A stretch of 64,000 nucleotides of DNA from Albugo candida (taxonomy: Eukaryota): NCBI GenBank assembly GCA_040437565.1, contig JBDOQK010000057.1, positions 62,001 to 126,000 of the forward strand, in the 5' to 3' direction. Shown here in pieces: positions 1 through 64,000 of this stretch. The position numbers and the translations under genes were made by a program. The notes under the pieces are model-generated. The model did no database searches and was not told the origin of the DNA. It saw only the letters and a program-made list of their open reading frames with translations. Numbering within the stretch: position 1 is the first letter of the stretch; the number at the start of each line of letters is the position of its first letter.

Positions 1-434
1 TCAAATGGGGATGCTCAAGCGCGCGACAGCGTTATCGTTACGATCACGTTCGTTATTGGTCATGGTTGGTATACTTTAAATAGGTAAGTCACAAGTATCA
101 CACGTTTGAGGAGGTATTTTTAGTAGGCGCTATCTTATCTACAGCAGACGTGACATAGCCTAAAGAAGCTGGACGTCGAACTAAATTATTAGCTTTATCC
201 GATTAAAAACATGTACACTAATCACACAAATTCTTCCTCATGCGTCTAATCTAGTTATATTGCTCTATATAAGCGCATTGAGGTCTTCTTTCTTGACTCA
301 TAGCTTCAACTTACTTCTACAATTCAGATCATATGTATAATTCTCGATCAGCTGGTTGATATCACTTCATCTCACTGAATCCTAGCTATGCTGGTCGGTC
401 AAAGCACTTCCTATCGTCTAGAATACATTCGACA
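1..434 (+). mobile_element. Possible 3' end of a Copia-type retrotransposon (RNase H tail, polypurine tract, candidate LTR ~115-434)
   Basis: Frame 1 reads SNGMLKRATALSLRSRSLLVMVGIL*, loosely like the Copia RNase H end (ADGMTKAL...R..LG). It is followed by TTGAGGAGG (PPT-like, 106-114), an AT-rich tract with TATATAAG at ~266, and a ...CGACA end at 434. No partner LTR is in the window. Confidence 0.3.
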
Positions 435-1729
435 AAACATCGGAACATACGCGCCACCTTCGTACCACCTCCATGTATCGAGTTATACGATGGCGACCAA
501 TGCGATTATTTCGATGTAATGCTAGTAGAATGAGGACTCCAGACGGCTTTCTCTTCAGACACGCGCTACACAATGAGCACCATGAATGAAAGTTTCCCAA
601 AATGCTGACATCTCAACTGGTATATAACGCTTCACGCACCCCAAAATCGAGATTCGATTCAATATACAACTCCTCTCAGCTCACAGCTAATCGGATAAAT
701 GACCTTCAACCTTCAGACAGCAGTCATTTGCCGCTTTAAGGCCTCCCTACTGACCTTAAGACCAGAGCATCCTCGGAACCGTAAACATGCCACGTACAGT
801 TTACTCAATTTCAAATCGTGTGACAATTTATCGCTCGTTTGCGCTCGAGGTAGTCTTTGACACGCATCAAAAGCCAACGGGAGAATAGCGCTCCATTTCG
901 GTCGTTTTTACTGCGCCAATTACATAACAAAGGATGTGGTGCATTTGCGGGTCCAGTGTCATTCGCCATATAATCGTAATCAACTAGAGTATCAACGTCA
1001 TCGAGTCGCTCAGTAAGTCACAATTACGATCTCGGAAGTGAGACTGCAATGCTTTTGGCCACATTTATCTCAAAAAAGTTGCCGTCCGAATAGGTAGAAC
1101 ATGACTACCAATTGGCTCGAATATATGAGGTCTCATGTAACTATGATCTGGAAAGCAGCGACAAGCTCTATAGAAATTGTTATCAATGCAGCACTGAAAA
1201 AATCCACTACTTAATTCAAGCTTCTTCAGGAAATTTTTCCAGGCGGTGTCATATTCGCGTGGTAAGTCAGTATACCTACCGGCAGATTTATGATCGTTTG
1301 CGTATGAAAGTACAAAATCGATCTGAACCAGCACCATTTATCATATCTCCCCAGCCCTCGACGGGTTGAATAAAAGCGGATTCATCACAAAATAGCAAGA
1401 AACAAGTTCTATCTCTTCCGCTTCCGACATTGATAGTTTTAAGAAAGATGGTGGCAACTCATGCGCCAAATTCATTTTTTCTTTCTCGTACCGCCGCCTG
1501 TTTGGATGTGGGATGGACCCCACGCAGTACGACGACATCATTTACGACATTGGAATCAGAGCCGGAGGCTTCATTTCCGACACATATTTCTCCACCACAT
1601 TGAGACGAATGGATCAAAGAATCGAGCAGTGATTACATGCAGCGGCAATGCGGCTTTGTGGTCACTTTGAATCGACGTTCTTAGTGATTTGTGTGTTTGA
1701 ATATCTCCTTTTACGAGCACACTCAATTT

Positions 1730-4530
1730 TCATGACACAAGCCTTTCTCGTCTGTACGGAATACAAGTGTTAGAGATCGCATGACGTCGAATCAGTGACA
1801 TCTATCAATCGATAGGGAACGCGTTTGCGATCACAACGACACTGAAAAAGAAATACGCACTTATTCTTTTGCGATGGGAGCATCCGTCAAAATATATATC
1901 ATTTCGTGCCGTCGCTGTTTCACATTTACTGCAGCTGCAAGTCGATTGAATGTCAATCTTGGCTGAAATCTTAGAGCTACGAGCTTATCGTCAAGACCAG
2001 TACGCAATGGTTTTATTCTGATGAATCAAAAGCGCATCGATGTGCTCTTCGTATGGAAAAAAGTCAGGAAATCGTATTGGATGTTGTGGGTTCCATCTCA
2101 TCGGATGAGGCGTACGCAGTGGCTTCGGAATCACTCGCTGAGCGTTTGAAGGCAATTGACGGAGAAAGAAAATTCATTAACAATCACTGTCATTAGGATA
2201 GTTTCAAACGCGGTCGGATTCAATGACTACAAATCGTGTGCGTTTGATCTCATACACATTACCGCTTCTTTTCCTTGTCGATCAATCTCCTCTTTTCGCA
2301 CTTGCGCGAGCGTTTGGTAGCGTCTGGAATCAGTCATCCGTTCATCTGTGAATTTATTTTTGCAAACATTACAAAGCACATCTGCAAACGTCTTACATGC
2401 ACGCAACCAATTGTCCGATAATCATTTGATTCTTTGGATGAAATTTCTGCCGCCTTACCACGTGCAAGCGCGGATATCCGAGGAGTAGCACTCGACGCGC
2501 TTCCAGCCTCACTATAGTCGACAATTATGCCATCGGAAGCAGAATGGACGATCCTCGAGTCGTTTTTATCGCATAACTCTCACGGAATTTCTCTTTTCGA
2601 TCGAATGAATGCATTGATCGGATTGAAATCGATCTTACTCCGTGCCCGCAAGGCTGTGAGGCTAATCCAAAAGAGTTCTCACATGGATTAGAGGCAAATA
2701 GCAGCTGCATCATCTTTTCAAAGCTGGTTCCGTCGGTATATCATCGAGTCCATTGCGGTCGGATCCGTCCAACAGTAACAATTTTGCGATTGCAAATGCT
2801 TTTATTTTGCTTCGAAATGCTTCAATCGACCTCTCCGTAATTGAATCACTCATGTCATCTCATAGAACACTCAATCTATTACATCTCCTGTCGAGCTCCT
2901 GGGATACCATTCGATCGTTATGGTAGAGGATTCTTAAATTATCCCATTCAACTCGGATCGATGGCATGCGGATACTCCAACTGATTTCCAGTACTTTGCA
3001 GTCGAGTGTGATGCAGGCGCTTTGAACAACGTTTTGTATAGAGAGGGATAATATCATCGTCGACCAAGAAAGTGACTCAAACATGAAATGAATTCCAATG
3101 TTTTGCGTATGGGAACATCCGATTTCGTGTTGCGTCCAATTGACTGCTGACAGAATTACTCGCTTGAAGTTTGAATCCATGGAGAAATGTGATGGTGAAT
3201 CAGACATCCGTTCGATTCCTTCACGGCCATCTCCTGGCTCTGCAGTATCATATGGAGATAAGTTTTACACTGAATGCAATTGCGGTACCGAAATCGAAGG
3301 AAAACGTTTCGATTGCGTTCAACATTCGATTGAATATTTAAGAGTCGTTAGCAATTCAGAGAACGACAGCCAAAAAGATATTGTTTGCGTTGTTGGTCAA
3401 ATTACGGCTACTATCGCGTTCCTCAATGAGGAGGTAATTGTAGGCATTTGATTTTGGTGGAGGAAGAAGTCGGATTACAGGAGGGTTTGGTAGGTGAAAG
3501 CGATCTAGTGGTTCGTGAGGGTACTATGTTGCTTCGTGTGCTATGGAAAGATTCCCACTTTCCCATACCTTGGCACCGTATGGGGTTACAAAGACGTGAG
3601 GTTTTCGCATACCTTACTAATGCAAACTCTGCTCAGACCGAAACACCAGGGAGTCATTGCGAGGGTATTTGTGAGTTTTGAAGGTATTTTGTCGTCGCCT
3701 CTTACTTGTTTAAACGAGTCGGATGAGCATATCGCAAAATTGTAATCTCAATGTATCGATTTCCTACGCGTAGAGGCGCTCAAAAAAGAAGTAAAGTTGT
3801 TTTCGCGTGTGGTCTAATAGCTAATGCAAGTCGCATCCCTTCACGCAGCATCGAATCGCTCAACACGATTCAAACTTCATGCTCTCAATTACTGAAATTA
3901 ATATGTCAAAATGCTGTCCTCGCTGATGATACACGCGCTTACATAGTGTCAATCTTTCAGGAGCTTATCGAAGGGTTTCGGTGTGGCGATTTGGGCGCTT
4001 TGTGCTTCTTCAATGATGCTATACACAGCAAGCTATTGGCGATAAGCTAATTGCCGATGGTGCACGAGATGAACGAATACTGTGTAGCACACTATTTTTT
4101 AGGGTGCCCTGAATTTCGGCAGTTTTTATACCAGCGCTTGATGGTGTTGATAGAGCAAAATCTTCAAAAATTTACTCTATTCGCATGGTGTTTTGAGTCG
4201 GCTGAAAGCAAAGCAAGACAACGAAACGCGTGGTACACACCATACCGACTATAATGTGGTTGCACAAGTTTGCAATGATTTGTGCCACATGAAGTTAGAT
4301 GCGGAAGTCTGAAAAAGAAGTCGACTGCTATTCTCCAAATGGCTGCGCGTGCGTTAGCCGCAATTGTATGAGAGAATTGTATGAATGGTATTATATGCCA
4401 ATAGCCGCTGCTGCTCGGAAATTGAAACTCATCCAATGCCAAAGAAATGCCAGCTCTACGCGCGCGACACAACGAACATTTGCAGGGTAACAATATGATC
4501 CATGGTATACTGCTACTGATGGCGCATTTG
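1730..4530 (+). pseudogene. Decayed large protein-coding gene, family not recognised
   Basis: Successive + strand protein-like segments are broken by stops and frameshifts. For example, ORFs 3751-4050 and 4051-4254 are in frame and separated by a single TAA. Confidence 0.4.
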
Positions 4531-4899
4531 TTTCCTTGTACGAGTACTCAATCGGCTGAATGTACTGAGGAGAGTAAGAGAGAGGAGAGCAACTATGGGA
4601 ACACTGCTGGGGTCTGTGATTTTGTATTGTAAGGATTCAATTTTGTGTATCAGTATTGTGGCTCAGGAATAAGGTAGTGGATCGGGTATTTTGGCACATT
4701 GGGACGATGATTGTACCAAAGACGATATAGCGTCTTAGATACGCGGCAAGTATTTACGATCAGCTGTATTATCTATGTACTAATGTGCCACGACAAAAGT
4801 CTCTTGTCGTACGGACGGAGCCCACCACTCGTTCAACTTTATTTCCTGACGCATTCGAATCCACACCCGTTTTGAGGAACTCATTTACAAAGACATGGA

Positions 4900-11349: not shown

Positions 11350-13600
11350 AAGATCAACATGCTAAGTCCTGGTTCTACAGTTGCTTTACGAATTAAGTTA
11401 GGACTATATATTTCATCACCCCCAGTATCACGCAAGAATGGTATTCTCGGCGGCTCGAGCATCTGACCACGATATGGTATTTGTTCTACTTCATCCAATA
11501 ATGGAAATCTCAAGTAATATGTCATACTGAAAGCATCGGCTCGCTACTTAGTCCACCATGAAATCAGTCACGTTACAACCTAACCCGAGAGAATCCTGAG
11601 CCCCTGAAGACGTATGTCTTGCCAGATGGATACCAAGTCAAGTCTATTATCCCAATATAACAAAAGTACACGAATGATGGCCACAGACACACTACACACT
11701 CGTCTTTTTCCTACTTCTTCGGCTGATTATTCTTATACTCTAATGCGCAGATTCCGGGCCAATAAAGACTGGGGGGAAATTGAATGGTCGATTTGTGGAG
11801 CTTGAAGTAGATATCTAGATTGGTGCAAAAAGATGGATTCACGCACTCGAGAAGGTGTTCGTCTTGTGGAACAAGTCATGCTTCATCAAGAGATATTAAA
11901 ACGGTGCCACCGATATCGCACCAATGCAAGTATCCATGCCACAAACGCTCAGAGCCGATGAGAGGGTTACTTTCTTGTTCAATAAATACTGATTACGCAA
12001 AATCAGAAGATAGGTGCTGGCTTGCTGGTGTGGAGGGACTGAATACATGCAAGAGTGTCCCTACTATCATACGGGTAGCTTCATCCGTGCACGGACAGAT
12101 AAAAAACATGATGAATTCTGTCATTTTTCTGCTACAGTCAGCGCCATTTTGTGTTTTTCCGACACATAATCTACACATACTCTATCATCCACAATATGTT
12201 ACTTGCTCGTCTGTTCTCTTGCTACCGCTGCTGCGATTACCATATCATGTCTCTCGATAAAGCCGTTAAGTGGAGTCGAAAAGTATCATTCTTAAGAGTA
12301 TCTCAGCTCAACTAAGGTTCCTCAAAAGCAGTACAGCGACTTCTTATGACTCACACACGGTATTCGATAAGATCTAGCTTCTGCAAACATGAAGGTTATA
12401 CAGGAAATTGTATGATGTCGCTGATCTCTGATGCTGTTTAGATCACGCAAAAACCATATTATTTGTGGTCACTATGGAGAAACCCTCGGAATATGGCCCT
12501 GATGCAATATTGGCGACTAATTTTTTTCGTAATGCGCAAAGTATCATGCATCTTGAATGTCGAATTCTAAAGCTGCTACCACTTCGGCAAATTACGACTT
12601 TCACAACCACAATTGCTACTCATTCAACGCTTATAATCGGACAGATGATTCATGGAAGCATTCCCGGTGCCCGTAACCTGTACATGCTTTTCTAATTTCT
12701 TTAAAACGGTTTCAACAATGAGTCAGCGTTTCAAAAAACTATACGACTATGAACGAGTTGATGTATCGTAACATGGAGGATGCAGCAAAAATAAGCAAAA
12801 AAAAGGCATCTTTATCTTTATCCAGTCTGCATCGCGTATAGTCAATCCGACAATGCGTACAAAAACCGAATATGCAAGCAGTCTCGACACGCAGAGACAA
12901 GCAGAGTTCTAACAGAATCAAAAGCTATCACTGAGTTTTTCCAATTGACGAAACGTCTCAGCATGGCGTTCTGTAAAAATGAATAACCGGCTGATCAAGT
13001 TGAGATACAATAGAACATGAATCAAGAAGGCAAGCGATACTGCAACGTTCTCGAAAAAAGATTATTAGTAGCGAAGGGAGACATCACATCGAGTGACATA
13101 AACGTTTACAAGAGACATTTTGTGGTGGCCCATACAGAAATGGGAAAATCCCTGGCTTGAAAGATAAAAATGGTCTAAATGACTGGGTGATTGGGTTACT
13201 CATCCATAAGAATTTGGGTCTTATCGTCGCCCGATGAGGTGAGTCTACAAACAAGGCTCTTGATATTGACATTAGGAATCTTTCGTAGCGATGCCCTGGC
13301 TGCTATTTGTGCAATTGCGATCTCAGTAATACGTACCATAGACGTCATTCTGTTGCACCAAATGAAACAATGTATGAATTGTATCATAGAATCACTCAAG
13401 TACATATTTTCCAAGCAATAATGGATTGCATGTGCGAAACTTGGGCGAGTCACTTTTCTGGTGGTGCTGGACGAAGGAGTCACCAGGGGATTGATATCAT
13501 CTCGGCCTGTAAGCTGGCATATATAATGGAAGCGTGAGCTTCAGCAACGTCACTACAGGATGAACGCATCTAAACGGTAAGCGATTATTTCCGCGGATAT
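11350..13600 (+). pseudogene. Decayed gene with repeated CxxC-hydrophobic motifs (CCG/CHXC effector-like)
   Basis: GLNTC..(frameshift)LLSYG at ~12040, NCMMSLI at ~12405, GLNDWVIGLL at ~13175, and an intact QCMNCII at ~13370. Confidence 0.3.
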
Positions 13601-13734
13601 CTTAGAATTTTCTGATCCTATTCCGTCCAAAAAATGATCCACTTCTTTGAGAAAAAACAGACAGAATTCACATGCACGTCAGTTATAAGATGTTTTGTCA
13701 GCATCGGCCGTACATACTCATATATTTATTATAC

Positions 13735-14510
13735 CTGGCATCAGAACACAAGCATGAAGCCTCTTATAGGCTTGAGCGAACGTCTACGTCTCATCGTTGA
13801 GTTATCAAAGTTACAATCAAATCCGGCTGAATTGATTTCTTCACGTTTGAGAGTGACTGCATGTCCATCCAAATGCTCAAAAATTCTTTCATATCGACGA
13901 AGCGATGGTCCTGATGTAATGCTGAGATTTATAAACAGATCGCTGTCGTCAAGTGGCACGATATCTGGGTTGATTGCTACTTGAAACTGCTAATTCCCTA
14001 CTTCCTGGCCTAGTACTCTTTCCCATAACATGGAAAGAAACTCCTGGTACAATCTTGGTATGAAATTGAAAAAGATCGGTCATGGCTACTATACGACCAC
14101 AGCAAGTCGGACAGGGCTCATCCATAGCACACCCCTACCATCACATTTGTGACAAGTCAATTAGATTTGCTGGACGATTTCTCACCTTACTTGAAATTGA
14201 CTGATTATAAATCTTTGCACATTTGCAAGATGTATATTGATGTACGTCTTCTTCGTGGGTACTTCTGTTCCGCAATAATGGTTTTAAAGTGTCTCACGAC
14301 GATCGGATATTTTTAATGTATTGACAATGTGAATCTCTTTGAGTGAAACGCGGAGAGGAATACCCTGTGTCAGGACCACGCGAACGCTCATCGCTGCTTT
14401 TCGGTCGTCCTCCGCCGATATTGGAAGAAGATATCTGATAGATCTTAAGCCACTTGCTTCTCCTCCCTACGAAGCACTTTTCTCACCTTTTTGTCTCAGC
14501 TTCTCACATA
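13735..14510 (-). pseudogene. Type I DnaJ/Hsp40 co-chaperone remnant (G/F region, zinc fingers, C-terminal domain; J domain not seen)
   Basis: The minus strand gives DIFFQY-GGGRPKSSDERSRGPD-IPLRVSL, QQI*LTCHKCDGRG, PCPTCCGR and DLFINLSIT...RIFEHLDGHAVTLKRE in canonical DnaJ order, with frameshifts and stops. Confidence 0.8.
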
Positions 14511-14847
14511 AGAGCGCTATATTTAACGCAATGTAGCAGCCGATTCTATAAAATTTTGACAGTGAAAAAAACGTTTGAATGCCACAAAGAGTGCCAGGCG
14601 TTTGATGATGTGTATTTGCTTCTGCCGAGTCTCTTATTCACGCAATAGATGCTCCATTTTCAAACGTATCTCATTTGCAGCGATCGGGCGGTAAAATTAT
14701 TGTATGTTGCTATGAGGAAAGAAATACCTCTGGCAATTGAATATATCTGTGGCTTTGATAGAAAAACGTACCGCTTCGATAATGCCGCAATATGTTTCTT
14801 ACAAGCGCTCGGCAATTTCATTCAACGTCATGCTGCTGAAGCAAATA

Positions 14848-22079: not shown

Positions 22080-22179
22080 NNNNNNNNNNNNNNNNNNNNN
22101 NNNNNNNNNNNNNNNNNNNNNNNNNNNNNNNNNNNNNNNNNNNNNNNNNNNNNNNNNNNNNNNNNNNNNNNNNNNNNNN
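22080..22179. other. Assembly gap (100 N)
   Basis: Run of exactly 100 N. Confidence 1.
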
Positions 22180-40745: not shown

Positions 40746-40859
40746 GAAGGACATGCACTAGAAAATCAACACTATTACTATACTAAAAGCGGACTATTAT
40801 CTCACTACTGACCGAGGGCATAAAATAAATTTATCCAATCATATACAACATTGATTAAA

Positions 40860-49849: not shown

Positions 49850-50660
49850 ATTTCAAGACAATAGCTCAATGCACAATTCAAATGATTTTTGAATTTGGAG
49901 CGCTTCGGATGAAAAAGAAAAAAAAATGATGCTACAGACTCAAATCACCAAATTGACAAGCATGTAGGTGCAAGGTGCATTGTCTAATTAAACATTCCAA
50001 AGTTGGGATTATATCAGTATGATTGGTCCTTCACGTCAAAAGACGGATGAAGGGATAAGAGGGAAAGTGAAAAGTCATGAAGACATGCTGTCAAGACGTC
50101 GAATTATGGACAGCAGGATGCAGAATCTTTATTCAGAATTGAAAGATCAAGCTTGCGCGCTTGCAGCTCTGAAAGGCAACGATGTCAAGACGAAAAGATC
50201 TTTCCAGATATTTTGGATGAGCAAGAACATTTACAGAAGATCAAGAATGCTGAAATTACGAATGATATGAAAAATGCCGAAGAAATGAAGCAATTTCGGG
50301 AGACACTAAATCAAATATTAGACTATGAAGCGTCTTTGAAGGGAAATAAATTGAATATCATGGAAAAAGAAGACGAAGTGGGATGATTGATGGCAGACTG
50401 CAACCTTATAGTCCAAGAACAAGCTGAAGTTGCTCACGCAAAACGAATGAAGCCCGAGGATGCTCTTATTGAAGCTAAAGATTCTTTGGAACAACAACTG
50501 GATATTGATTGATACGTACTTATCGCAAGAGGTCACTCGCTGGCGTGAAGAAAATTTCCATTTAAGAATCAAATCGATGAGACAGATTTAAAAATCGTTT
50601 TGGTGGCACATGAAGAAAAGAACTGGCAACTGCGCCGCTCTTTAGGACGTGCATAAAGAT
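49850..50660 (+). pseudogene. Decayed coiled-coil protein gene
   Basis: E/K/Q-rich fragments 50019-50270 and 50153-50386 continue beyond in-frame stops. Confidence 0.35.
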
Positions 50661-52042
50661 GAATATAAATGCGTGCGAACTTGCGTAATCCGCAGTGGAA
50701 ATCGGTATAGAAATATTGTTCAAGGCAGCAATATTTCTGTGTTGTCGTAAAAGGAAAGAAGCTATACGGCTCTTCTCCAAGGCTTAGAGTGGAGACCTTC
50801 GCGTTCTAAGTATTTCGTTCGGCGTGGAATGTCGCGATTAGAGCCGTCGCCGGTCATTGTGCTCGCCTCACGAAGAAATATGTCACGGAAGTAGTCCAGA
50901 ATAGCTGAAGAATGGCTGTCATTCTTTCGAGGTGATCGATGCAAAGGTTGCCGGTATCGGAAAGTGTGAAAGAACTTCTGCTGTTCGTTCACTTTCTTGT
51001 TTGCAAAAAAAAAGAGCTATATCGGCTACAAGAGCACAAAAAAATTACCAGACGTAAATTCAAGGTCAATACTGCTACTTGTATTGTTTGTGTCTTCCTA
51101 GTTTGTTGTTAGATCCGAAGAATATTTGGTTTACCTTTTTTCTTTCTTTTTTCTGCTATAACGGTTTTACTTTTCAAAATAGATACCCAGCCCCCACACA
51201 TCTTCTTCCGTCGAGCTTTCATAGAGAATAGTACAACGGTTACACTTTACAACTACAGATTGATGCGCTTGTACTGATATCATTACCTTTTTGAACATGA
51301 TCAATAATTCGAAAGGATGAAAGCATGGCTTGTCGGGTCCAATTGCAGTGCAGTCCCCTTCATAGCAAACATTCTTGTTCAGTGTAAGGGGAATATCCGC
51401 ATTTTTGCCGATTTTTTTCGAAGAGAGATGGCGGAATTTTCATGGCTTTATCACCAAACTGGAATAGCACGACCTATTCAGCTTTTAATTTTGAAAAAAT
51501 ATGATTTCTGCTGGACGAATTGGATATCCTGATGCATATCCCCCTTCAGTGCCAAGACAATCTTCAGTTTTGTCTGTATCAAAGTGAAGCGTAGGGATCT
51601 CATAAGATGGAGATCAGTTCAGTACGTACGACCCACAAAAATTATCGATGTAGAAATTGAGGGAAATACTAATGTACTTCGGGAATTGAAGGTGGGTACG
51701 ATACTGAGGACGTTTCCTGAAGCTTTTAACGTATTGGAGACAAGAAGAAGCAGGACCTTTTGGATTTCTTGCACTGTCTTTTGCCAAAGAGAAGATTGAA
51801 GCTGATCTTGTCGTTGTGAATAACGATGAATCAATTGGATATGCAGTAATTCCCTGAACTCATATTCCGCGAATAGTCGGCGCAGTACCTTTCGTAAGCA
51901 AAAATGTATCGAATCTCTATTCATCTTGAATATAATCATTGACGATCGCTTGTATTGTTTATCTTTTTGACTGCATCTATTTATAAAGTCTACCAAGCCG
52001 AACAATTGACATGGACATTACTTACCGATTCGCGCACGCAAC

Positions 52043-52944
52043 ATGAGTACGTGGATGCTATAGCGTGTGAGCCTACACACGAATGTACTGGAGCTTTAAT
52101 ACTCGGCCAAGTAATCAACCTCGCAAATGGAGCTTTTCTAAGAGGACACGGAACGTATTTTGATAATTCAAAACTGATTGAGAGAGTTGGTGGTGCCGTA
52201 GAAAGAGTCAATCAACTCATATCCGTTAAGTCGATCGCAACACGGTACTTTGGAGAAGTCAGAGACATTATGGTCGTTCGTGCTGTATAAGCGGGGAATA
52301 AACACTGGTGGATCGATGTGAATTGCCAACATCACACATTGCTACTTTCCAGTACTGTATATCTTCCGGGTCGAGCGTAGCGGAGAAGAACATAAGAAGG
52401 TCAACTACAGATGCGAAAAAATTTCAAGAAATGATCTCATTAATACTGAAATTAGGGAAATGCGAAATGAAAAACAATAACTTTCCACACTAGTGCCGTG
52501 AGTTATGGAGCCCAGACAATAGGCAATTCGTTTGCCTATCGCCCTCATTGGTTAAACGGATGAAGCAGCATACGATCACACTTTGTGAGGATGTAAATCA
52601 CGACTGTATCACTAAAGCCAACGGATACAAGTGGATTACACGCAGTACGCAAGAAGGGACCGGGTTTATTGCCAAGATAAGCAGAAATCAGCGTCGGAAG
52701 TTATGGAAACAAATCTGAACTCTGGGCGAAGAAAAGGAAAGAAACTGCGCAAAAGCCTATGAACGTTCACGATAGAAGAAAGTTTTTTATGTACACCGAG
52801 CAATCCACCAGCTCGGAAAAAAGTAAAGATATATATCTCCAGAAAAGATTCTGGTGGCCTACCACCAATAGGGTACCATTTAGAAACAACGGCTGGCGAA
52901 CAGGATCACTGATGTCGGTATGTCACGTATCGTATACCCATTGA
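52043..52944 (+). pseudogene. RRP4: Exosome complex component RRP4 (EXOSC2) pseudogene
   Basis: GQVI...FLRGHGTY...GAVERVNQLISVKSIATRYFGEVRDI, in-frame TAA at 52288, then KHWWIDVN...LSSTVYLPG...RRRT, FHTSAVSYG, SPSLVKRMKQH and ANGYKWIT. Multiple stops and frameshifts. Confidence 0.9.
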
Positions 52945-53070
52945 GACGCGTGTATGATATATTAATTGACATTGCGCAATAAGCTGCTAGATGGAAGGTC
53001 ACGAATTTGCTATTAGAGATTTATATCTTACATTGATTCCTATACCAAGCGATAAAATTCTCCTGATACA

Positions 53071-55350
53071 TTGGAGTATACATATCTACCTAGTATGGCT
53101 ACAGCACTGACACGTGTCATCTATTGTTGCTGCTATCACGACAGAGAACAATGCAGCTATGCGTGGATACAAAATGATTCGAATTTCCAGATGCTCCAAT
53201 TAGATCTCAACGTCCACGTGTTATACATCGTTGATTTCGGAATTGAGTCCGAGTCCGAAAATAGTGATGGTATCGAACAATATGTACAACGAAAACACAG
53301 CTCTTATGTCTCTTCGGCGAAGGACTTGTATGGTGCTGCAATCTTTGACGTGCTTGATTTGTGCTCTGCAACGACTGAAACTATGAAGACTTTCGTCTCG
53401 TGGAAAATACCGCAATTTCCATCTTTTGTCATGTTCTTTGAACCTCCCGAGAAAAACCCGTACACGGGCGACGTGTAAAGAAGAATGGAAGTTTTGTACG
53501 GCGATAGAGCATTATCCAGTGGATTTAAAGACCTAAAAATGCGCATCAAGGCATCCATTCCAGCGATCAATCTATATCAACGATATAACTACGCACCAAG
53601 ACCCGATAAAAAGCCTGGAGAAGATGTTCATCAAAGCGAAATATAAAATGAACGTTGTCATCTTGGCTGACAAATTTAACAAATCACAAAAATGTCTTAC
53701 GAGTGTGTCAGTGTGTTTGCACCATGAAGGAGTAAACTCTGTTAACATATACGCGAAAGAGTCAATGAGGTTGAGAGTGGAAATGGACAAGTACGACTTT
53801 CACACTTTGTCTCGGAAATTGTGGTGGCTCTGACGTCATTCAAGGATCAAGTAGAAATTGTTCAGACGTATTAACCGACAAAACGAACTCGTACAATGAT
53901 GTTAACAGCTTTTCAAATCCATTTTTCCGAAAATATGCGGCCAAAAACGAGCTCGCGAGTACGTGGTCAGATCGAGAGGCTCAACACGACGACTTTTGAG
54001 GAGTACGTTATCGATTTAACAGTACTCTGGGTCATTTACTTTAGTTCGCAGTCAGAGATCGATACGCTTTATGCATAATCAAATGAGTGGGTGGGTAAAG
54101 ACTCAGAAAAAACTGACTCGGAAGTATGTTATCATATCTCTTGATGCAATTCATCATGATGACGACAATCAGTCTCTTTGTGAGATTTATGGATGGCTGG
54201 GATCTACCGTGTATTCCTTGTTGTTCTCGAAGCCGAATCCGATCTTCTGTATCCCGTTCTGTCCCGAAAATAATGAAAAGACTTGCATTTCTTATCAGCT
54301 ACAAGAATCTTTGTAAGCAGTAGAGGCTTCTATCGAAAGTATTCTTCACGTGGTCGACGTGCTATATTCAGCAATGGAGATCAGTCGCTTTTTCAGCAAG
54401 CTAAATTTAAAATGCTTTGCCAGTCTGGTTTCTTACTGAAAATGAAGAAGTTTTCACCATCACACGCGTTGTATCAGTAGCGTTTCCTGGTCAAAACCTT
54501 TTTATTCGCAGCAGCTGTTGGAATCGACAAAAGAAGGCAAGGCACAGAACGAAATCCCACCAAAGGAAAAGACATCTCTTGTGTGCTTTGTTGCTGACAA
54601 GACGACCGAGCCAGAGTCAGAAAGGAAGATTTTTGATCGGATCCGACAAAAAGCAAGCATTGATCTACAATTACTTCAAACCTATCCGATATCTGCTCCA
54701 AGTGCTTCATAACTTTCCTGGATACAAGAGTCAATCAGTCAAAGCTTGGGAATAGATCTCAGTGGTGTCTCATCCTCCGACATAGTTCCTCATGTGACCA
54801 AAGGAAACCAACAAAATCTGTGGCTCAGCTTAAAGCTCTGTGTAATCGGTTTCTTGGTCAACCACGTGGACACATTAGCAACTCAGAATCGACGCTGAGC
54901 AAGTACATGGACACGTATATAAAAGGATCCATCTTCGGTGAGCAGCAGATAGAGCCAAGTGTGTTTATGTGGTCGAACGGTAAATGTCAGAAAGACTTTG
55001 CTGAAGTTTTTAATGCCGAAATGTACCAAATGCCCACAATTGCGGTTTATTATCTGTCAAAATAGCGATTTGCGGCAATGATTGGCGTGTCTGAAGCTGT
55101 AAACCTCCAGGACTTTCTCAGAAGAGTTATCACAGGGAACGTCCACAATCCGCGCTGTTTGGGACCTGAGCGACGAATGCAGTTTTGATGAAAATGTATT
55201 ATGACCCTCTCTGGTGATATCAACTATTGAACTTCCACGATTTATTGGACATCGCTGTGAATTGGCACAAATCGATTTGTATTGTTTTCTGAACACACGC
55301 AGATACATATCAGTATATCAGATTCGACTTCAGAGAAGGACTTATCAGTG
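53071..55350 (+). pseudogene. Multi-thioredoxin-fold (PDIA6/P5-like) protein pseudogene
   Basis: KIPQFPSFVMF (~53405), IERLNTTTFEEYVIDLTVLWVIYF (~53970), and C-terminal FMWSNGKCQKDFAEVF...MPTIAVY..K*RFAAMIG...LQDFLRRVITG matching the PDIA6 b-domain pattern. No CGHC motif is seen. Confidence 0.55.
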
Positions 55351-57229
55351 TGATTGAAATCGAGCTTATTCGTTAGTATTGAATATAGTTGATCGTATGA
55401 ATTGAGTGCACACCTCACAAAGACATATTTTATGAATGCAAAATAATAGATCCTTCTTGAGGTCCAAAAGATTCATAGTGTCAATGTGGATACGATAATT
55501 ATCATAATATAAATCGTTCTTGTTCCAGCAAGTTCTTACTAAATGAGAAGAATTATGATAGAATTTCATGTCATGTGGTTCGTTGGTACGAAACTGTTTG
55601 ACTCATAAAGAGATTCTCCGACAGGATTTATCTTGTCTCTTTCACTCATGATCACAGAATGCATAAAAATCGGCTCGCAAGAATTCGTATAATTGATCGC
55701 TTCTGCTCCTTTCGAGAAATACAAAAAACATCGCGTAATTTGATATCACGATGACGCACAACGAAACAGCCATTAGCTGTACCTGGTTTGCTGGCGAGGT
55801 GTTCTATCCAAATTTAAACATTTTTGTGGTAGACGATATTCCATTTCTATGTCATGATTGCATTCTACGGCATTCAATAATAATTAATTTGATGTCATGT
55901 CAGCTCTGGGATCAGGCATTCGAACACAAAACCGGGTGATCTTAGGAGAAAAATCCATCATTCGCCACTTAGGGTGAGACAAACATTGATCAAATCGATA
56001 GTATTGTGGATCTACCGTGTGCTTGAGTCTAACTTATTCGGGTGCTAAAGAGCACGCGACTACTGCAAGTTGATATGCAGAGCATCATGTGATTGTCATT
56101 ATGGTTGACATTATCTAGATCAAACTTTCTTCAAATTTCAGCCAATGCGGCGCTTCGACGAGTATCGTCAAGCTGACAATTATCACGACGCCGATATATC
56201 GTAATAGACTTGGAAGCCAATGTGCGCTTAAAGGTATAAATCTCAGACAAAAAAATGTTCCCAGAAACTCTACTATTCGAACTTCGGAAGTGTCGTACGT
56301 GACCAAACGTTTTCTAGCCCTGATTAGAGAATGCTCACGGTGTGAAAGCCGTTAGAAAGATGCTGAACATTCTCATTTCAAGAAAAGCAATATCTGGATT
56401 ACGCGATCTCAAAGGGTTTTGTCTTGCTCCCACTTGTGCTGCAAGTAGCCTGATGTTGGCAAGGTCCTTTCCTCGTCATTACAGGAAGTTAAACCAGCAC
56501 ATGGACGGAAACGGACATCTCGTTGAAGAGACGAGGTTCATCCCGCGGGTGACGGAGAGGGTTTTTTTTAGCCTGTTTACGCGGAATACGCGTCTGGGTT
56601 GGGCTGAATAAACCAGACGCGTCATCCGCAAACGGTGGTAGAAGATGATGGGCAGATGCGACAGGTCCAAGACCACGTAGCTCGTCTGGGACAAGTAATG
56701 GTTCAGCAGAGCCTGGATCAACGCATACATGAAGAGCTTTCCAACGAACTGAAAGCCGTAAAAACTGTGCGGATAATCTAGAAGTCCTCCTGGATGATGA
56801 TGATGAGGATTTTGAGGACGTATTTATCCCTGCACAGCCGCGACAGTCTGGGATGGAGCGATCTCAGTGTTGAATAACATAGCCTTTTTAATGAGAAATA
56901 TAAATATCAGATGAAGCTTAAAATATCCTTTTTCTGAATTAAACAGAAGCGCTTCTGTCTCTTTTTGCTTTTTGGCTCAGTTAACAAGAATCAAGTTAGA
57001 CGATCAATCAGGATCCAGAGATAAGAAATTACGGAATAATAAACTTTCGCATTGAATAATGTGTTTCACGAAAAATAAATCTTGTATGAGTAACCTTTAA
57101 ACGCTCGACATACATTACTCACATAAACCTTTAAATTCAAATCAAAGTATAGTCCATATCGTAAAAATCACAATTTAATAGCGAGTGTTAAATAATGACA
57201 GTGTGATAATTGAATAAAGCATTACTTGG

Positions 57230-58405
57230 ATGATCACGTAACCACCTTTACATGAAAAGATCAGAGAACTGGCTTTTCTACGCCAAAAATATTATTACAT
57301 CTGAATGCATTTGGGACACGCCACACTACATATTGTACTGAGTTTTCTTGTGCTCGCTAATTGTCAAGTGCGCATTCTATGATCATTGATTGTCTACTTT
57401 TACACCGTAATTATTAAATCGCAACGAATAAATGCGTTTTCCTTCATAAATACGATGGGATACAGCGGAGCATTTTGTAATCCATTGTCAGGCATATTTT
57501 CACGTCAAATGGTGATGGAGGATGATCATACCTTTCAAACGATTTCTGGCGGCAACTTGCGAATTGTTTTGCAAAACTGATGCATTCAAGTACGCGTTTT
57601 GTTATATTAATAGTGTGGATGCTTCTCAGAGAGATTCCTCAAATTATCTTTCAGTTTTCTCGAACAGTCTGTCATATCTAATGGAATGATTCAGAATTGT
57701 ACCGAGAGGTGGCGGACACGGACAACATCAAATGGAGCTGAGAATCACTAGCAACAAATGAATAAAAATTACCAAAACAGTTTCATTGCTGAAGGTGTGT
57801 GTTTAGTGCATGACGAAAAAAAAATCAAATAAGCATCAACATTTTTCTCATCTTTCAAGGTTGGAGGCGCTGTGTTTTATTGCAACCCAATCGAAACTCA
57901 AGGTGTTGATACTGAAGTGTTAGATAATGGATTATGCAAAGTTCGGGTCAACTCACATTATATTGGAAGAAATGCAAGATAGTGAGAATTTGTTGACGTT
58001 CGGCCTATACTCTCGACGTAGGTGCATCCACGATCTGTTCATAAATTAATTAAAAAGGAGAGAGCGTAAAAAAGCTGTTTGTAGGACGTTAGAAATAATG
58101 TCACTTCTGGTTTTCACAGCCTCCTTTCGACTTGTAAAGTCCAACACCCACTGCTTCTTTTGTGTAGCTTATTCATATTTCAGTATTATGGACGAGAAAT
58201 TTCGGATTCCTCATCGCATTCTGGTTTCGAAACTTGTGCAGTGTATTGCGAAGATTTGCGAAGAGATGACAATCCTTCCTCTCTTGGAATATTTGAATGA
58301 AAAAGACAGAAGCAGACTCAATTTCAATATGTGGGCTAAAGAAAAAATAAATTTGAATCGATGCGTACGAGTACTTCCGCACGAAAGCGTCACTAATGCT
58401 TTTCT
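57230..58405 (+). pseudogene. NSUN2: RNA m5C methyltransferase NSUN2/TRM4-like pseudogene, 5' part
   Basis: In order: TG..LRQ...HIVL..CA (~57270-57355), VDASQ (~57615), NGMIQNCTERWRTRTTSNGAENH (~57680), KVGGAVFYCNPIE (~57857; the STCSL motif is reduced to C) and INLNRCVRVLPHESVTNAF (58347-58403). Confidence 0.8.
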
Positions 58406-58528
58406 TGTTCAAAAGGCGCGACTGGTGAGTTGAAGGGTTGCGAATGGTGATGTTGCACAAAGATCATGAGGTCAAAATGGATTAGGTTTCTCATTTACTT
58501 GATACTGAGCTAGTGCTGGAAACTAACA
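58406..58528 (+). repeat. 5' LTR (123 bp)
   Basis: TGTTC...CTAACA; 104/123 identical to the 3' LTR with no indels (counted by hand). Confidence 0.95.
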
Positions 58529-58542
58529 GGTTTCGAGCCCAA
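58529..58542 (+). promoter_or_regulatory. Primer-binding site, eroded GGTTATGGGCCCA type (initiator tRNA-Met fragment)
   Basis: GGTTTCGAGCCCA lies immediately after the 5' LTR and matches the copia-type PBS at 10 of 13 positions. Confidence 0.65.
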
Positions 58543-58599
58543 GCCCCCCACAAGACCCTCTAGCAGCTTCGCCAGGTGCTCTCGACCGACATGCGGTCG

Positions 58600-61500
58600 A
58601 TGAGAAGACAGGCGACAGCGTGGACATCTCTCAATCGAGAGAACGCGGGAACTCCGAGCATAGTGCAGATTGTATGGATAGACTTGGAGAACTCATTGGG
58701 AATATGATGCGGGACTTGACACGGAACGCGTGGAGCGGTCCCAACTGTCCCCTGGTAGACCCTGCTACTCGTATAGGTAGTGGTTCGAGTGTCTTCAGTC
58801 AATTCTTGACTGCTGAACGGAATCGGACAAGAGCGGACTCACGCACTGCAGCGATGGATGTGCGAGGACGTTTGGTATGGAGCAGCACCAACAACAATAT
58901 TTTCCGACGGTCCAGCTCACGGTGCAAGCTTAAGCCCTACCGAGGCAGAACATCTACCCGACACAAGAATTTGGGTGAAGATGCCGACCGTCAAGAGTAT
59001 GAAGCTTCCTATAGAGCGCTTCACTGGAAAAGAAGAATACAAAGGACTTGAAGAAGGTTTTAAGAACTGGGGTTTTCAAATCCTGGATGGGCGGGGCTCG
59101 GCCCACAGCTTGAGGGGAGGTGAATGGCCTGTAGAATGCAACACGAGGACACTTAATTGGTACCTCGATGGAATTAATAGGAAGCTTTTGACAAGATGAA
59201 AGGTGTCTGGGCATCAGAAGTGCCTGCAGTTGAACACTTGATGAAGAAGATGCTACAGGTGTACGACAGAGAAATCACTGTTGAGCAACCCACACTATTC
59301 ATTCCGGCTCGTAAGCCAAACGATAGGTCTTGGATGGAGCAGTAACAATACCTGGTTGCCGTAGAAGGCTCGGCCAGCACCCCGGATCAATTTTTGCTCC
59401 AGTGCATATGTGAAGGAGCAAGGTGGGAGGTGAAACGAGCCACGCAAACGCGACTCGACCGTCGCCGAGCTGACTATCGCAAGAAGGCACGGGAGATGTC
59501 AGACTTCTCCAGTACGTTTGAGCTCGTTATAGGAGCATATGTCGTGAGTGGAATGCGACAACCCACTAGCAGCCGAAGTAATTCCCGCGGTGCTAATGAT
59601 GCGGAAGAGGCATTACGATTTAGCGATGGGAGACAATGCTAGGGTGGCAACCAGATCGGGCATACCAAGTGAGAGTGCAAAAACAAATTGAGTGGTAAGT
59701 AGGCGTCATTTGCATTGAGTATAGGCACCACCATACATGGTGGGGAGCAGACCTGGATTCTCGACAGTGGCAATAGAAGGCATCTGGTGCTGGATGTTAG
59801 CATGCTGATCAACTCAGTTGATTTCTTTGACGAGTTTAATGCCGCTGATGATCAAGCTATCAAGACCACGAAAATGGGTCTCGTTGGGAGCCTTCGTGGA
59901 CAGTGTCATGAACTTGATTTCGTTAATCGACGTCTTCTATGCAAAGGACCTCCCAAAAACCTGCTTTCATTTTGTAACTCGAACAAAAAGGGATTGCGCT
60001 GAGCACGCAGGCGAGCATCGCTATTTAAAGGATACTAGTGATGAGCCACGAGTGTTTGAGGTCGAAAAGGAGAATAATGTGCTAGTCTTGTGCCCACAGA
60101 GTGGAGAGGCTGTACCGAACAGTAACGAAACAGTGTTTGCGGACCTACATGCTTCCGATACCAATGGTGACGCTAGTATAACCGTGAAGTGAAAGATTGT
60201 GGATTTGCACAAGCGACTCGGTCATCTTATGTATGACACGGCTGATAGGATTGAAGACAATGAGAACTCGGGAGTTGAACTGATTGATAGGATCCGACCA
60301 AGCTACATTACATGCACTCAAGGCAAACAAACTAAGCATGCACAATCCAAGAAGGATAGTGGGGCGCATTTCCCGATTGATCTAATTGAAGGGGGCACCT
60401 GCAGTGACCTAAAGGGTCCCATGACTCAACGGACCGATGAGTTAACCGGTATCTGATCAACTTTGTTGACCATTCGTCTAAATACTGCAGACTATTTGTT
60501 GCCTGAAAGAAGGATGTAGCCGCGAAATATTTATAAGCTTTTCTGGGGGTTTTCGAGCGCACGTTTGATTGCAAGGTGCACATCCATAGAATTGACAGCG
60601 GTGGTGAATATCGTAAAGTCGACCTGTTTTGCAAGGCGACTGGAGTGACCAGACAAGTGAGCGAAGCCGGCAATGAAGCATCCGATGTAAAGGTAGAACG
60701 CATGCACAAGACTGTTCTCAATATGGCGCGATGCATGATATTTGCCAGTGGCTTGCCGTTGCGATTCTGGTTTGATGAAGTGCCAAACGCAACTTATATT
60801 TTAAATCGCAGCCCAAGTAGCGCAAATTGCAAGCGGGCTCCTCCAATTTAAGTCCTGACCGGCAAGAAGCCCAGTATTGCTGATGTTGTGTTTTTTGGAA
60901 GCTCGTGTACGGCATATCGCTAGCCAGGAAAGAAATCGTGGAAACCGCGCGCCGAGGTCGAAACAATCGTGGGGAAGCATGACGAGACCAAAGGGCTCAA
61001 AGTATATCTACCCCGCGAGCGATTGGTCATAACGACACAGCATATAAAAATGTGGAAACCATGGGCATTGACAGAAACTTTCAATTGCAGAAGCAGCTAC
61101 ACATGGAAGGATCCTGATTTACGCCAAGCTGTACAAGAAAAGCGGAATACTGGGAAGCGAAAGGAGTGCATCGGCACTAACAAGAAATCGTTTAAGCACG
61201 GGTTACGCGGTAAAGGAAACATTGTCAAGAATAAAACTCCGTTTGGGAAGGCCGATGCCCACCCGGAGTAGTCGAATGCAGCACGCATGACCACTTGGCA
61301 AATGGGCGTCAAACATGTACCGGTTGGAATGGTGTACTTGCTCGAACATTCGAAAACATACAAGGAAGCGGTATGCTCTGAAGATGCTTCGCAATGGAGC
61401 GAATCGATGGATCCGAAATTGAATCTCTCAAGTCAAATAGAGCGTAAGAAGTAAAACTTCGAAGTCCTGGTCAGAAGCTGCTACATTCTAAATGGGTCTT

Positions 61501-62885
61501 TAGGACTAAAAGGCACTCAGGTTGGACGTTGAAACGATTCAAGGCGAGATTTGGGGCCTGCGGAAACGAGCAGTCATATGGTGTGAATTACAGAGCCGTG
61601 ATGAAATTAATGACAGCAAAAGTGGTGCTGGCATTGGCGCGAGTATGAGAGGTGCCTACTCGGCATGGAGATGTTTCTAACGCATATGTCAAAGGAGATA
61701 CAGAAGAAGGCATCGAGAGCGCACTTCACGTGCCGCGGGGGATGGAGTTAGCAGAGGACGAGTCCAAGAGATTGGGCACAACTGATAAGAGCGTGGTAGC
61801 GCTGAAGCTTCGGAAAAGCCTTTACGGGTTGGAGCAGGCTGGACGATTGTAGGCAAGGTTGCTACATGATACAATTAAGAAGCTTGGATTCGTATAGTGC
61901 TACACTGACAGTTGCATATACTTAAAAAGTGATGCAACAACGATCACGCTTATGGGTGTCTACGTAGACGATTTTTTGGTAACTGCTTAAAGGGTCTGCG
62001 ACGTAAACCAATTATTCAGTGACATAAATGTACTCGAGGTAAGGGATCTCAGTGAAGTGACAATTTGTTTTGACATTGGTGTGACTTATAGCCAAGGACC
62101 CGGGGTATCTGCTGGAGCAAACGTAGTACATTCGCGAAGTGCTTGCTGGACTATGTCAGGGGCAAGCTTATCCTGCACGTAAATCTATTGGTGAAGAACA
62201 AGACGGAGAAAACGAGGGCAATTTGCTACCAGTTGACGGTGACGGTACATCAAGATGAACGACGGTGAAGATGTTTCGGTCGGTCATTGGAAGCCTACTG
62301 TGGTTATCTAGATGCACGAGACCATTCATTGCATTCGCTGTGCCAGCCGGGGAGCGCATGCACCGAGAGATCGCGATTGATGGTGGGTAAATAGAATCGC
62401 TCGTTATTTGGAGTGAACCGTCGACCTGAAGTTTGAATTGAACGGAACACTTGAAGCCACAATTCACAAGAAGTCGTCTGGAAGGCTACAGCGACGCCGA
62501 TTACGCGGCAGACCACGCGTATATACAATCGGTTGGTGGAGGAGTTATATTTTATCCACAATGGAGGCCGATTTTGTAGCTGCATCGCAGGTGGTGAGTA
62601 ATCAGCTAGGACAACGAATTGCTTGCTGAAATTGCTGTGCTCGTTTCTTAGCTGATACTGATGCATGTTGAGTATCAACCTGCGATAAAGCAAATACAAG
62701 CGGAAGAAAAAGCAGGAAGAGCAAAACACATCGCAATACGTCTCAAGTTCATCATGATTACAGCAAGAAAAAGATAATCAAGGTGGTGTATTGCGAGTTA
62801 GGCTTCATGTGAGTTGACCTCCTCACCGAAAAATTTGCTGCGCCAAGGTTTTCAGAGCTGTGCGAGATGATCTCGCTGGATTAAG
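58600..62885 (+). pseudogene. Copia gag-pol polyprotein, disrupted
   Basis: FTGKEEYKGLEEGFKNWG (gag), an eroded CCHC at ~59635, WILDSG at ~59755, LHKRLGH at ~60205, CSDLKGPM / RIDSGGEY / ERMHKTVLNMARCM (integrase), SKWVF / LRKSLYGLEQAGR / GVYVDD (RT) and RAKHIAIR (RNase H). Confidence 0.93.
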
Positions 62886-62902
62886 GTCATTTCGGGATAG
62901 AG

Positions 62903-63025
62903 TGTAAAAAAGACGCAACTGGTGAGATGAAGGGTTGCGACTGATGAGGTCGCGCAAAGATCATAAGGTCGGAATATATTAAGTTTCTCATTTACTTGAT
63001 ACTGAACTAGTGCTAGTAACTAACA
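62903..63025 (+). repeat. 3' LTR (123 bp)
   Basis: TGTAA...CTAACA, preceded by purine-rich GGGATAGAG (PPT remnant). Confidence 0.95.
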
Positions 63026-63030
63026 TTTCT

Positions 63031-63530
63031 TTTTCGTGGCGTTTAGTAGATGCAAAGCCGAACACATTTATCCTGTCACTGGAGCTCGAGTCGCTCAGAC
63101 AGCCGTCACTCTTCAATGTTCTGATTGACAGAAAAATACTTCTCTTAGCAAGCATTTTGCACCATCCAATCGTTTGAATTCGGAAATAAAGATCGCGTTC
63201 TGTGTACTAAAGTTGCCACCACACTGGAATCAAGATAGCATACTACAATTACGACAGTTCATTCAGGATGAGCAGTGGTCTTTCATATGGTACCAAAACA
63301 AGCAGTCAGAATACAAACCACGAATGATATTTATAAATTAGCGGTTCAACGACCTCGCGTCGAGGCCTTCCATTCAGGTGTGTCAACGAGTCAAGCCCAA
63401 ATAACGGATGCAGGCGCTCAGACGCTCAGACGCTCAGACGCTCACACCAGCTCTCAAAAAGCAAATTCTTATTTTACCAGCTGCTATATTCGAGGAGAAA
63501 AATCTTGTGGAATAATCAGGTTCTAACCCT
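63031..63530 (+). pseudogene. NSUN2: NSUN2/TRM4-like pseudogene, 3' part
   Basis: FVAFSR directly after the target-site duplication completes the RxLPH...FFVA motif begun before the insertion. A weaker C-terminal similarity lies at ~63250-63340. Confidence 0.55.
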
Positions 63531-64000
63531 CAAACTTGAACACGTCGAGAAACTTCAAAATAAACATTTTTGGCCGTCGTTGGTACACCTCGCGATCAAA
63601 ATGAGAATCTTATTTATCCCATCACTTGTGGCAAGCTCAGAATAGGATTTCACTAGCAGCATCACCGGACCTCAATTAAAATCGATCACGTCTTTATTTC
63701 ACTTTGTCGATGCAATATAGCGACTAATAGCAAAACTCTGTTCTAGTTATTTGCACAATTTTGTAGACGATTGTTTTACACTTTTCTTTTCTTTTGCTTG
63801 AGAAATAGCCCAACATTTTGTGCGTTAAGGCTGTGGACGCAAAAAGCAACTTTAGACACTGTTAATAAATATTTTCGGACGAAGATACCAGAGTTCATGA
63901 TATAGACCCTCAAACAACGCCACCACACGGAGATAGCAAAACTACTAGAGCTCACATTTTAAACAGTATGGATCGTTTCTTCAATGGCCAATGTTGGTTG

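Follow-up and report, generated by a model that had tools for sequence, protein, structure and literature searches.

A probable dead duplicate of a multi-gene RRP4 locus in the genome of Albugo candida

Introduction

Gene loss (fractionation) after large-scale duplication has been proposed for oomycetes, as in Phytophthora, and both pericentromeric duplicons and copia-rich oomycete centromeres are known. In the human genome, duplicated (unprocessed) pseudogenes that arose from segmental duplication have been catalogued, as set out in passages of PMC2978362. Albugo candida itself contains CCG effector clusters, which passages of the preprint by Furzer et al. (10.1101/2021.03.29.437041) attribute to sequential segmental duplication, possibly through unequal crossing-over. 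Here, we analyze a 64,000-nucleotide stretch of A. candida contig JBDOQK010000057.1 (positions 62,001–126,000 of the forward strand), which we call the window and number from its first letter. The segment between 48.3 and 55.2 kb of the window probably represents a non-working copy, made at the DNA level, of a multi-gene locus that carries RRP4, which encodes a cap subunit of the exosome, and a gene for a thioredoxin-like-domain protein of the endoplasmic reticulum (ER). The window as a whole is nuclear DNA of A. candida, the oomycete of white blister rust, and is likely to be gene-poor and composed of non-functional sequence of several ages. Within the portions of the literature that a search reached, a block of pseudogenes in Albugo was nowhere described; the word "pseudogene" has 0 occurrences in the main texts of 10.1101/2021.03.29.437041 and PMC13585763.

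Results

Three neighboring remnants on one strand

The segment between 48.3 and 55.2 kb contains three remnants, all on the forward strand:

48304–49317, forward strand: eroded gene debris that includes a remnant of the UPF0240 (NDUFAF4-like) family at 49021–49167 and underlies two public models named "hypothetical protein", recognized by matches to proteins P0007–P0009.
52015–52779, forward strand: full-length pseudogene of RRP4 (exosome cap subunit), recognized with Pfam, the PDB, and alignment to protein P0001; no intron-sized gaps.
53095–55192, forward strand: pseudogene of a thioredoxin-like-domain ER protein, recognized by alignment to proteins P0002 and P0003.

A reading of the window made from its letters alone (the sequence-only reading) had proposed an RRP4 remnant with stops and frameshifts, and database searches bore this out. 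With stops read as X, the segment 51001–54000 matched RRP4_S1 of Pfam (E = 9.6e-13), S1 being the sole domain detected in one frame. All nine matches returned from the PDB with 51943–53100 were RRP4, the best of which (E = 6.1e-25, 91 bits) aligned across three in-frame stops. The protein database yielded a single match to the remnant, the 275-amino-acid RRP4 of A. candida (P0001; CCI48163.1; E = 2.3e-39), whose residues 1–264 are collinear with 52006–52785. Frameshift-aware alignment to P0001 revealed 157 identical residues of 252 (62.3%), 3 in-frame stops, and 5 frameshifts, as counted by a purpose-written, unbenchmarked aligner with linear penalties for gaps, frameshifts, and stops. An apparent cluster of stops past residue 160 corresponds to a +1 excursion between two A-runs. 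A functional RRP4/EXOSC2 has an unbroken frame with N-terminal, S1, and KH domains, whereas the frame of the remnant is broken 8 times. Intact P0001 contains ECR1_N, S1, and KH domains that all score above the Pfam cut-offs. Its peptides can be read from contigs of runs that contain the window, which agrees with the expectation of the sequence-only reading that a functional RRP4 exists elsewhere in the genome. When metagenomes were scanned for the parental locus with P0001, 47 pattern matches appeared, none of which was confirmed.

Directly 3′ of RRP4 lies a second dead gene that had been described as PDIA6-like. Three proteins were found in a database search with 53290–55299, every one of them from Albugo: P0002 (CCI11030.1, A. 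candida, 863 amino acids, encoded on a 15,750-bp contig; E = 5.7e-105), P0003 (CCA21548.1, A. laibachii, 776 amino acids; E = 7.6e-87), and P0004 (CCI48167.1, A. candida, 755 amino acids). The remnant (53123–55192) shares 437 of 665 residues with P0002 (65.7%) and contains 6 stops and 14 frameshifts; identity to P0003 is 380 of 688 (55.2%). The existence of a dead gene at this position is upheld by these results, but its identity as PDIA6 is not. The hallmark of PDIA6 (P5) is a pair of catalytic thioredoxin domains whose active sites are CxxC. The intact parents match Thioredoxin_6 alone, with sub-threshold scores (24.6 and 26 bits versus a cut-off of 27), and the C[GP]HC motif is absent from every frame of the window. 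Judged by its sequence, the parent would be better named a thioredoxin-like-domain protein. The C-terminus of the A. laibachii homologue P0003 is KDEL, an ER-retention signal.

The third remnant lies upstream of RRP4. P0009, an 86-amino-acid parent-type protein from a run-derived contig, was matched by a HMMER search with 47500–50999 and belongs by its score to the UPF0240 (NDUFAF4-like) family (E = 1.5e-7, 32 bits versus a cut-off of 25). It shares 36 of 49 residues with 49021–49167, beyond which the window reading diverges from P0009. Parent-type contigs differ from the window by ~15% on 48577–49148. Two public gene models also map to this debris. P0007 (CCI11399.1, from an 8,674-bp A. candida contig) is 96–97% identical to 48304–48462, 48713–48787, and 48886–49317 in two frames. 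P0008, which is annotated as "hypothetical protein ABG067_006424 [Albugo candida]" (KAL0583667.1) on a contig of 229,052 bp, matches 48886–49116 at 100% identity and maps to 50084–50383 as well. Matches at this level place the window in the nuclear genome of A. candida. Both models look like pieces of pseudogene debris from different frames that were spliced together.

The parental locus and the age of the duplication

P0001 and P0004, together with the near-identical models P0005 and P0006, are all located on one 45,131-bp contig (CCI48163; CCI48166-8), and the EukProt numbers of the parental RRP4 and thioredoxin-like models are consecutive (P010686 to P010689). We compared 48001–58000 to contigs of four sequencing runs from four studies, designated X1, X7, X10, and X12. 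Contigs that are merely 80–90% like the window numbered 43 in X7, 39 in X10, 63 in X1, and 21 in X12. One parent-type contig spans the interval from the 3′ end of RRP4 to the 5′ end of the thioredoxin-like gene (joining 52713 to 53047 and 53105 to 53129). Other parent-type contigs, which occur on 48.6–52.1 kb, bridge 50699 to 51062 and 51788 to 52105, and hand translation of loose contig ends (52514, 52591, and 52673) yields P0001 peptides. The bridging contig and the adjacent accessions indicate that the functional locus shares the gene order and orientation of the window and that individual runs contain it alongside the dead copy. In the intact copies, RRP4 followed by the thioredoxin-like gene is retained, an order that holds for two genes and probably for three, the UPF0240-like gene being the third. 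Divergence from the parents is also alike for the two genes (62.3% identity for RRP4 and 65.7–65.9% for the thioredoxin-like gene), as a single event predicts.

The remnants are thus homologous to A. candida genes and carry disabling lesions, their parents are adjacent, and parent and dead copy are present in the same runs. These features, together with the copying in order of neighbors and intergenic DNA (2–3 genes), are those by which an unprocessed pseudogene is recognized. A processed (retro-copied) pseudogene, which would be a lone intron-less gene copy with a poly-A tract and non-collinear surroundings, is unlikely, since the remnants lie side by side in the order of the parents and their flanks are collinear.

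Across the 654 columns common to the window reading, P0002, and P0003, identity is 65.9% between the window and A. candida, 54.4% between the window and A. laibachii, and 70.6% between the two species. Three-point Kimura branches are 0.384 for the window, 0.069 for A. candida, and 0.303 for A. laibachii. Given equal rates in the functional lineages, the dead copy would have changed ~5.6 times faster than its parent, and the duplication probably arose within the A. candida lineage once this had diverged from A. laibachii. Because the block joins the A. candida branch after that split, whole-genome duplication, which was among the origins entertained by the sequence-only reading, is unlikely for the confirmed block.

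P0002 and P0005 share 90.4% identity and lie at the same distance from the window, which indicates either that the parental locus was re-duplicated later or that two diverged versions exist. We observed that P0004, P0005, and P0006 lack the first ~95–113 residues as well as an internal segment and contain an exact internal repeat of ~380 residues. The repeat may stem from tandem duplication at the parental locus or be an artefact of its assembly or annotation.

The dead copy in independent sequencing runs

Of the 24 listed runs, 20 contain the segment 48001–58000, and in 17 of these half or more of its 31-mers are present; the runs come from 10 studies dated 2011–2025. An X10 contig of 2,588 nucleotides covers 50221–52810 with 2 other letters and 2 gaps. 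Zero differences separate the window from X1 contigs at 50611–51366, 51545–52071, and 52201–52856 or from an X12 contig at 51968–52771. Contigs of the four runs therefore reproduce the RRP4 remnant, all lesions included, at 0–2 differences. Since the lesions are present in independent data, sequencing error is excluded for the RRP4 region. Among the listed indels that distinguish the window from the runs, 12 of 12 are not multiples of three, and 8 of these fall inside the thioredoxin-like remnant (92 further rows are unlisted). That the listed differences break the frame fits an absence of constraint.

Other parts of the segment are less uniform. Between 53.3 and 55.1 kb, all four runs differ from the window by 4–6% and have deletions of 19 and 11 nucleotides in common. 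Set beside 50.2–52.8 kb, this divergence has the appearance of a mosaic between isolates or between copies. At 56.7–57.7 kb, contigs of X1 and X12 cover the window and none of X7 and X10 do, which may be a presence/absence difference of ~1 kb between isolates. One X12 contig tracks the window to 52417 and then continues into RRP4-like coding sequence that, in a hand translation, is unlike both the window and P0001. This variant may be a further version of RRP4 or may derive from another Albugo lineage in the run. None of the listed runs that contain the segment is labelled as RNA; X12 was guessed to be RNA, and its cover resembles that of DNA.

Window-type and parent-type contigs also differ in k-mer depth, a quantity that is not copy number: 547–586 versus 118–135 in X7, 25–34 versus 4.9–7.3 in X10, and 282–365 versus 29–62 in X1.

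Composition and coding traces of the window

GC content varies from 0.32 to 0.48 across 2-kb bins of the window, the most AT-rich of which is 40–42 kb (0.316). The window contains a single scaffold gap, a run of 100 N at 22080–22179. CpG is not depleted (observed/expected 1.08). The window was also considered as a fungal-type repeat mutated by repeat-induced point mutation. This candidate was rejected, as the indices are not raised: TpA/ApT is 0.72 and (CpA+TpG)/(ApC+GpT) is 1.25, against thresholds of above ~0.89 and below ~1.03, respectively. Scans of the window for tRNAs and for Rfam families found none.

The sequence-only reading had recognized no intact gene in the 64 kb, and none emerged here. 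The longest stop-to-stop frame is 203 amino acids and the longest ATG-initiated open reading frame (ORF) is 172. Stops per 500 codons range from 11 to 51 when each of the six frames is taken in each 1.5-kb bin; a stop-density prefilter for coding frames was discarded, as it gave no discrimination between frames. None of the alternative stop-codon sets opens clear gene-length frames, and dropping one or two stops lengthens frames only as expected. The window contains 60 ORFs of at least 100 amino acids versus 22.7 ± 4.3 in 100 dinucleotide-preserving shuffles. This excess in ORF length is confined to 1–24 kb and 48–64 kb, whereas 24–48 kb is at the random level. Part of the window thus resembles eroded coding sequence and part, the random-like 24–48 kb, does not.

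Domain searches revealed few recognizable families. A Pfam scan of ORFs covered 145 of the 164 of at least 77 amino acids (19 of 77–78 amino acids were omitted) and the first 150 of the 181 in the class of 60–76 amino acids, the other 31 lying beyond 53.8 kb. A family reached its cut-off in 1 of these 295 ORFs (MCM_lid), and five families remained below theirs. Pfam searches that read through stops as X covered ~45 of 128 strand-kb (~35% of the strand-space), in which RRP4_S1, MCM_lid, RVT_2, and SH3_retrovirus scored above cut-off. No family was found by this method in the six frames of 53–58 kb or 1–4.5 kb, on the plus strand of 47.5–51 kb, or on the minus strand of 61.5–64 kb, 20.5–22.1 kb, 12.3–15.6 kb, and 58–61.5 kb. 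The description of the whole window as tightly packed with gene remnants on both strands is not borne out by one ORF in 295 and four families in the strand-space read through.

Two further stretches have a bearing on the genes that had been reported:

45040–45261, reverse strand: MCM5 fragment of which the AAA-lid part alone is detectable (MCM_lid, E = 2.4e-8, 34.8 bits versus a cut-off of 27.4).
13501–14850, reverse strand: stretch that was probably taken for a type I DnaJ, unconfirmed; CxxCxGxG at ~14154 and CxxCxG at ~14113 in the next frame.

All nine PDB matches to the first of these were MCM5 (best E = 5.9e-6, 28.5 bits; query residues 418–480 only), and the highly conserved core of MCM did not turn up when three frames of 43.5–48 kb were read through stops. 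A type I DnaJ (DNAJA) is marked by a J domain that contains HPD, by a zinc finger of four CxxCxGxG repeats, and by a substrate-binding domain at the C-terminus. CxxCxGxG occurs once in the window, as it does at least once in 17 of 100 shuffles. A motif scan found no HPD, and the stretch 13501–14850 had no Pfam match at E ≤ 0.05 or PDB match at E ≤ 1. The DnaJ resemblance is by eye only, and the remnant could not be confirmed above chance level. In the PDB, RRP4 scores 91 bits and the MCM5 lid 28.5 bits, whereas the DnaJ-like stretch has no match. If real, the MCM5 and DnaJ-like remnants have decayed much further than RRP4, which suggests several ages and argues against a single event.

An NSUN2/TRM4 remnant, which the sequence-only reading had placed after the PDI-like gene, found no support in the regions scanned. 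NSUN2 has an RsmB/NOP2-type methyltransferase domain and two catalytic-cysteine motifs. No database match was obtained for 55402–57801, no Pfam family in the six frames of 53–58 kb, and no NSUN chain in PDB searches at E ≤ 10; a scan of the window with NSUN motifs gave no convincing motif (best score, 31 of 70). NSUN2-like matches seen by eye near 56.3–56.9 kb were withdrawn after these negative database, PDB, and motif searches. Pfam matches to WD40 and to a helicase OB domain were weak and below cut-off (OB, E = 0.0027), and a PDB search with the helicase OB region gave no match.

The remainder of the recognizable features are repeats:

58411–63025, forward strand: dead Ty1/copia-like long terminal repeat retroelement with terminal repeats, rve, SH3_retrovirus, and RVT_2.
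60444–60674, forward strand: rve (E = 0.0012, below cut-off).
60858–61052, forward strand: SH3_retrovirus (E = 4.5e-8).
61469–62062, forward strand: RVT_2 (E = 1.1e-21).
21500–22079, no strand: tandem array of 3.4 copies of a 173-nucleotide unit that ends at the scaffold gap.
40031–41291, no strand: two tandem arrays (182–190-nucleotide unit and 73-nucleotide unit), located where the window is richest in AT.

The direct repeats of the copia-like element (58411–58528 and 62908–63025; 118 nucleotides) lie 4,497 nucleotides apart and are 85.6% identical, differing at 17 of 118 positions. Integrase precedes reverse transcriptase on the same strand, in two frames with stops read as X, which is the domain order of Ty1/copia elements. 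No target-site duplication is recognizable in the flanks. Immediately next to the N gap, a perfect 98-nucleotide inverted repeat (22180–22277 and 22289–22386, separated by 11 nucleotides) looks like a fold-back or scaffolding artefact rather than biology. A dispersed pair of repeats 8 kb apart (16103–16444 and 24109–24450; 67.6% alike over ~345 nucleotides) may be an old mobile element.

Discussion

We propose a model in which a UPF0240/NDUFAF4-like gene, RRP4, and the thioredoxin-like ER gene would have been copied together as one unprocessed block of DNA. The redundant copy would then have decayed unconstrained through substitutions, premature stops, and small frame-shifting indels, and the working parental copies would have retained function. 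The duplication appears to be older than the neighboring copia insertion. The MCM5 lid, the DnaJ-like stretch, the weak WD40 and OB matches, and the tandem arrays may be older debris that was added independently. The block at 48.3–55.2 kb would have no present-day function. The claim of the sequence-only reading that a multi-gene block died in place holds for 48.3–55.2 kb, where remnants of parental neighbors show similar divergence; its extension to all 64 kb, in which remnants are unequally eroded, does not find such support.

Several observations weigh against this model. Dating of the duplication after the species split presumes equal rates in the functional lineages and is based on a single gene with no outgroup, and the counts of stops and frameshifts vary with the penalties of the unbenchmarked aligner. 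Public hypothetical models (P0007 and P0008) lie on the upstream debris, where there may be transcription or a small functional ORF. A single-copy dead duplicate does not predict that window-type contigs in three runs have 4–5 times the k-mer depth of parent-type contigs, which we regard as a lead. Also to be weighed is the 4–6% divergence of the runs in 53.3–55.1 kb, against almost none (0–2 positions) in 50.2–52.8 kb. Finally, just three neighboring remnants are tied to parents, and a larger collinear block may have been missed when ~35% of the strand-space was read through.

This last point bears on the possibility, the principal one of the sequence-only reading, that the entire 64 kb, or even the 229-kb contig, is one ancient duplicated segment, either a segmental duplication or a remnant of whole-genome duplication, in which all genes are dead. 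Such a segment would account for the lack of a long frame anywhere in the window, for the excess of ORF length in 1–24 kb and 48–64 kb, and for housekeeping-type debris at several sites (the MCM5 lid, weak WD40, and weak helicase OB), and it would include the one block with proven parental synteny. However, the remnants are very unequal in recognizability, 24–48 kb is at the random level, collinearity extends over 3 genes only, and the confirmed block post-dates the A. laibachii split and is not an old whole-genome duplicate. We consider a single segment unlikely.

The depth of window-type contigs in X7, X10, and X1 raises a second possibility, namely that the block belongs to a region that is amplified or supernumerary. 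This could be a multi-copy duplicon, a zone near a centromere or in heterochromatin where such debris accumulates, or part of a chromosome that is accessory or that no longer recombines and has degenerated. Consistent with such a region, an earlier A. candida assembly has the locus on a contig of no more than 8,674 bp, tandem arrays and a copia-like element occur in the window together with a scaffold gap, and the parental locus exists in at least two versions that are 90.4% alike. Against it, the depth of a contig does not measure copy number, the listed sites show no second variant among window-type contigs, and passages of the Ac2V long-read preprint (10.1101/2021.03.29.437041) report no large depth-enriched region, whether high or low, albeit in a different isolate. 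An amplified region is thus a doubtful alternative. It would be a tentative guess, with the odds well against it, that the three-gene block belongs to a large duplicon that isolates have in common and that is present in several copies per genome, possibly in a pericentromeric or accessory compartment in which duplicated housekeeping genes land repeatedly and decay.

Decay of a duplicated block also accounts better for the lesions than two explanations that would remove them, both of which are excluded for the confirmed genes. Errors of the long-read assembly as the source of the stops and frameshifts are suggested by the N gap and perfect inverted repeat, which point to a local artefact at 22.1–22.4 kb, and by the location of two RRP4 frameshifts at A-runs. 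Yet four runs from four studies (2011–2025) reproduce 50.2–52.8 kb with 0–2 differences and 17 runs contain at least half of the 31-mers, which refutes the explanation for 48–56.7 kb, the portion of the window compared with reads, and makes it highly improbable overall. Functional genes expressed through unusual decoding (many short introns, reassigned stops, programmed frameshifting, or RNA editing) would fit the absence of long frames only and are scarcely credible, given that homology passes through stops, frames shift inside conserved domains with no intron-sized gaps, no subset of stop codons opens gene-length frames beyond the chance effect of fewer stops, conserved residues are replaced, listed inter-isolate indels break the frame, and the genome also contains an intact RRP4 that is encoded conventionally.

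For annotators of Albugo genomes, the block serves as a warning: the hypothetical models P0007 and P0008 appear to be stitched out of pseudogene debris, and the parental thioredoxin-like models are odd. The block offers a roughly dated multi-gene duplicate in mid-decay in the compact genome of an obligate biotroph, and it could be used as neutral sequence for calibration of mutation spectra and isolate divergence. If the excess in depth is true, it would hint at an unrecognized multi-copy, gene-dead compartment in A. candida.

Duplicated pseudogenes that arise from segmental duplications are well known, and the A. candida block is a case of ordinary duplication and pseudogenization. Like pericentromeric duplicons and oomycete centromeres, its surroundings are gene-poor, with fragments of pseudogenes next to tandem arrays and a copia-like element; unlike copia-rich centromeres, the window contains one copia copy only. 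The block resembles the products of fractionation in Phytophthora in being a small collinear paralogous block of which one copy is lost, but it is apparently lineage-specific and in mid-decay rather than deleted. Its protein identity to the parents is ~62–66%, whereas recent segmental duplications are defined by at least 90%. As in the human duplicated pseudogenes described in passages of PMC2978362, a disabled copy of a DNA block has kept gene order and intergenic collinearity and decayed without constraint; unlike them, the A. candida block lies in a compact oomycete genome, in a stretch without a recognizable intact gene. The CCG clusters, as portrayed in passages of 10.1101/2021.03.29.437041, belong to the same species and are ascribed to the same proposed process. 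Those clusters are retained, expressed, and under diversifying selection, whereas the block described here consists of decaying housekeeping genes.

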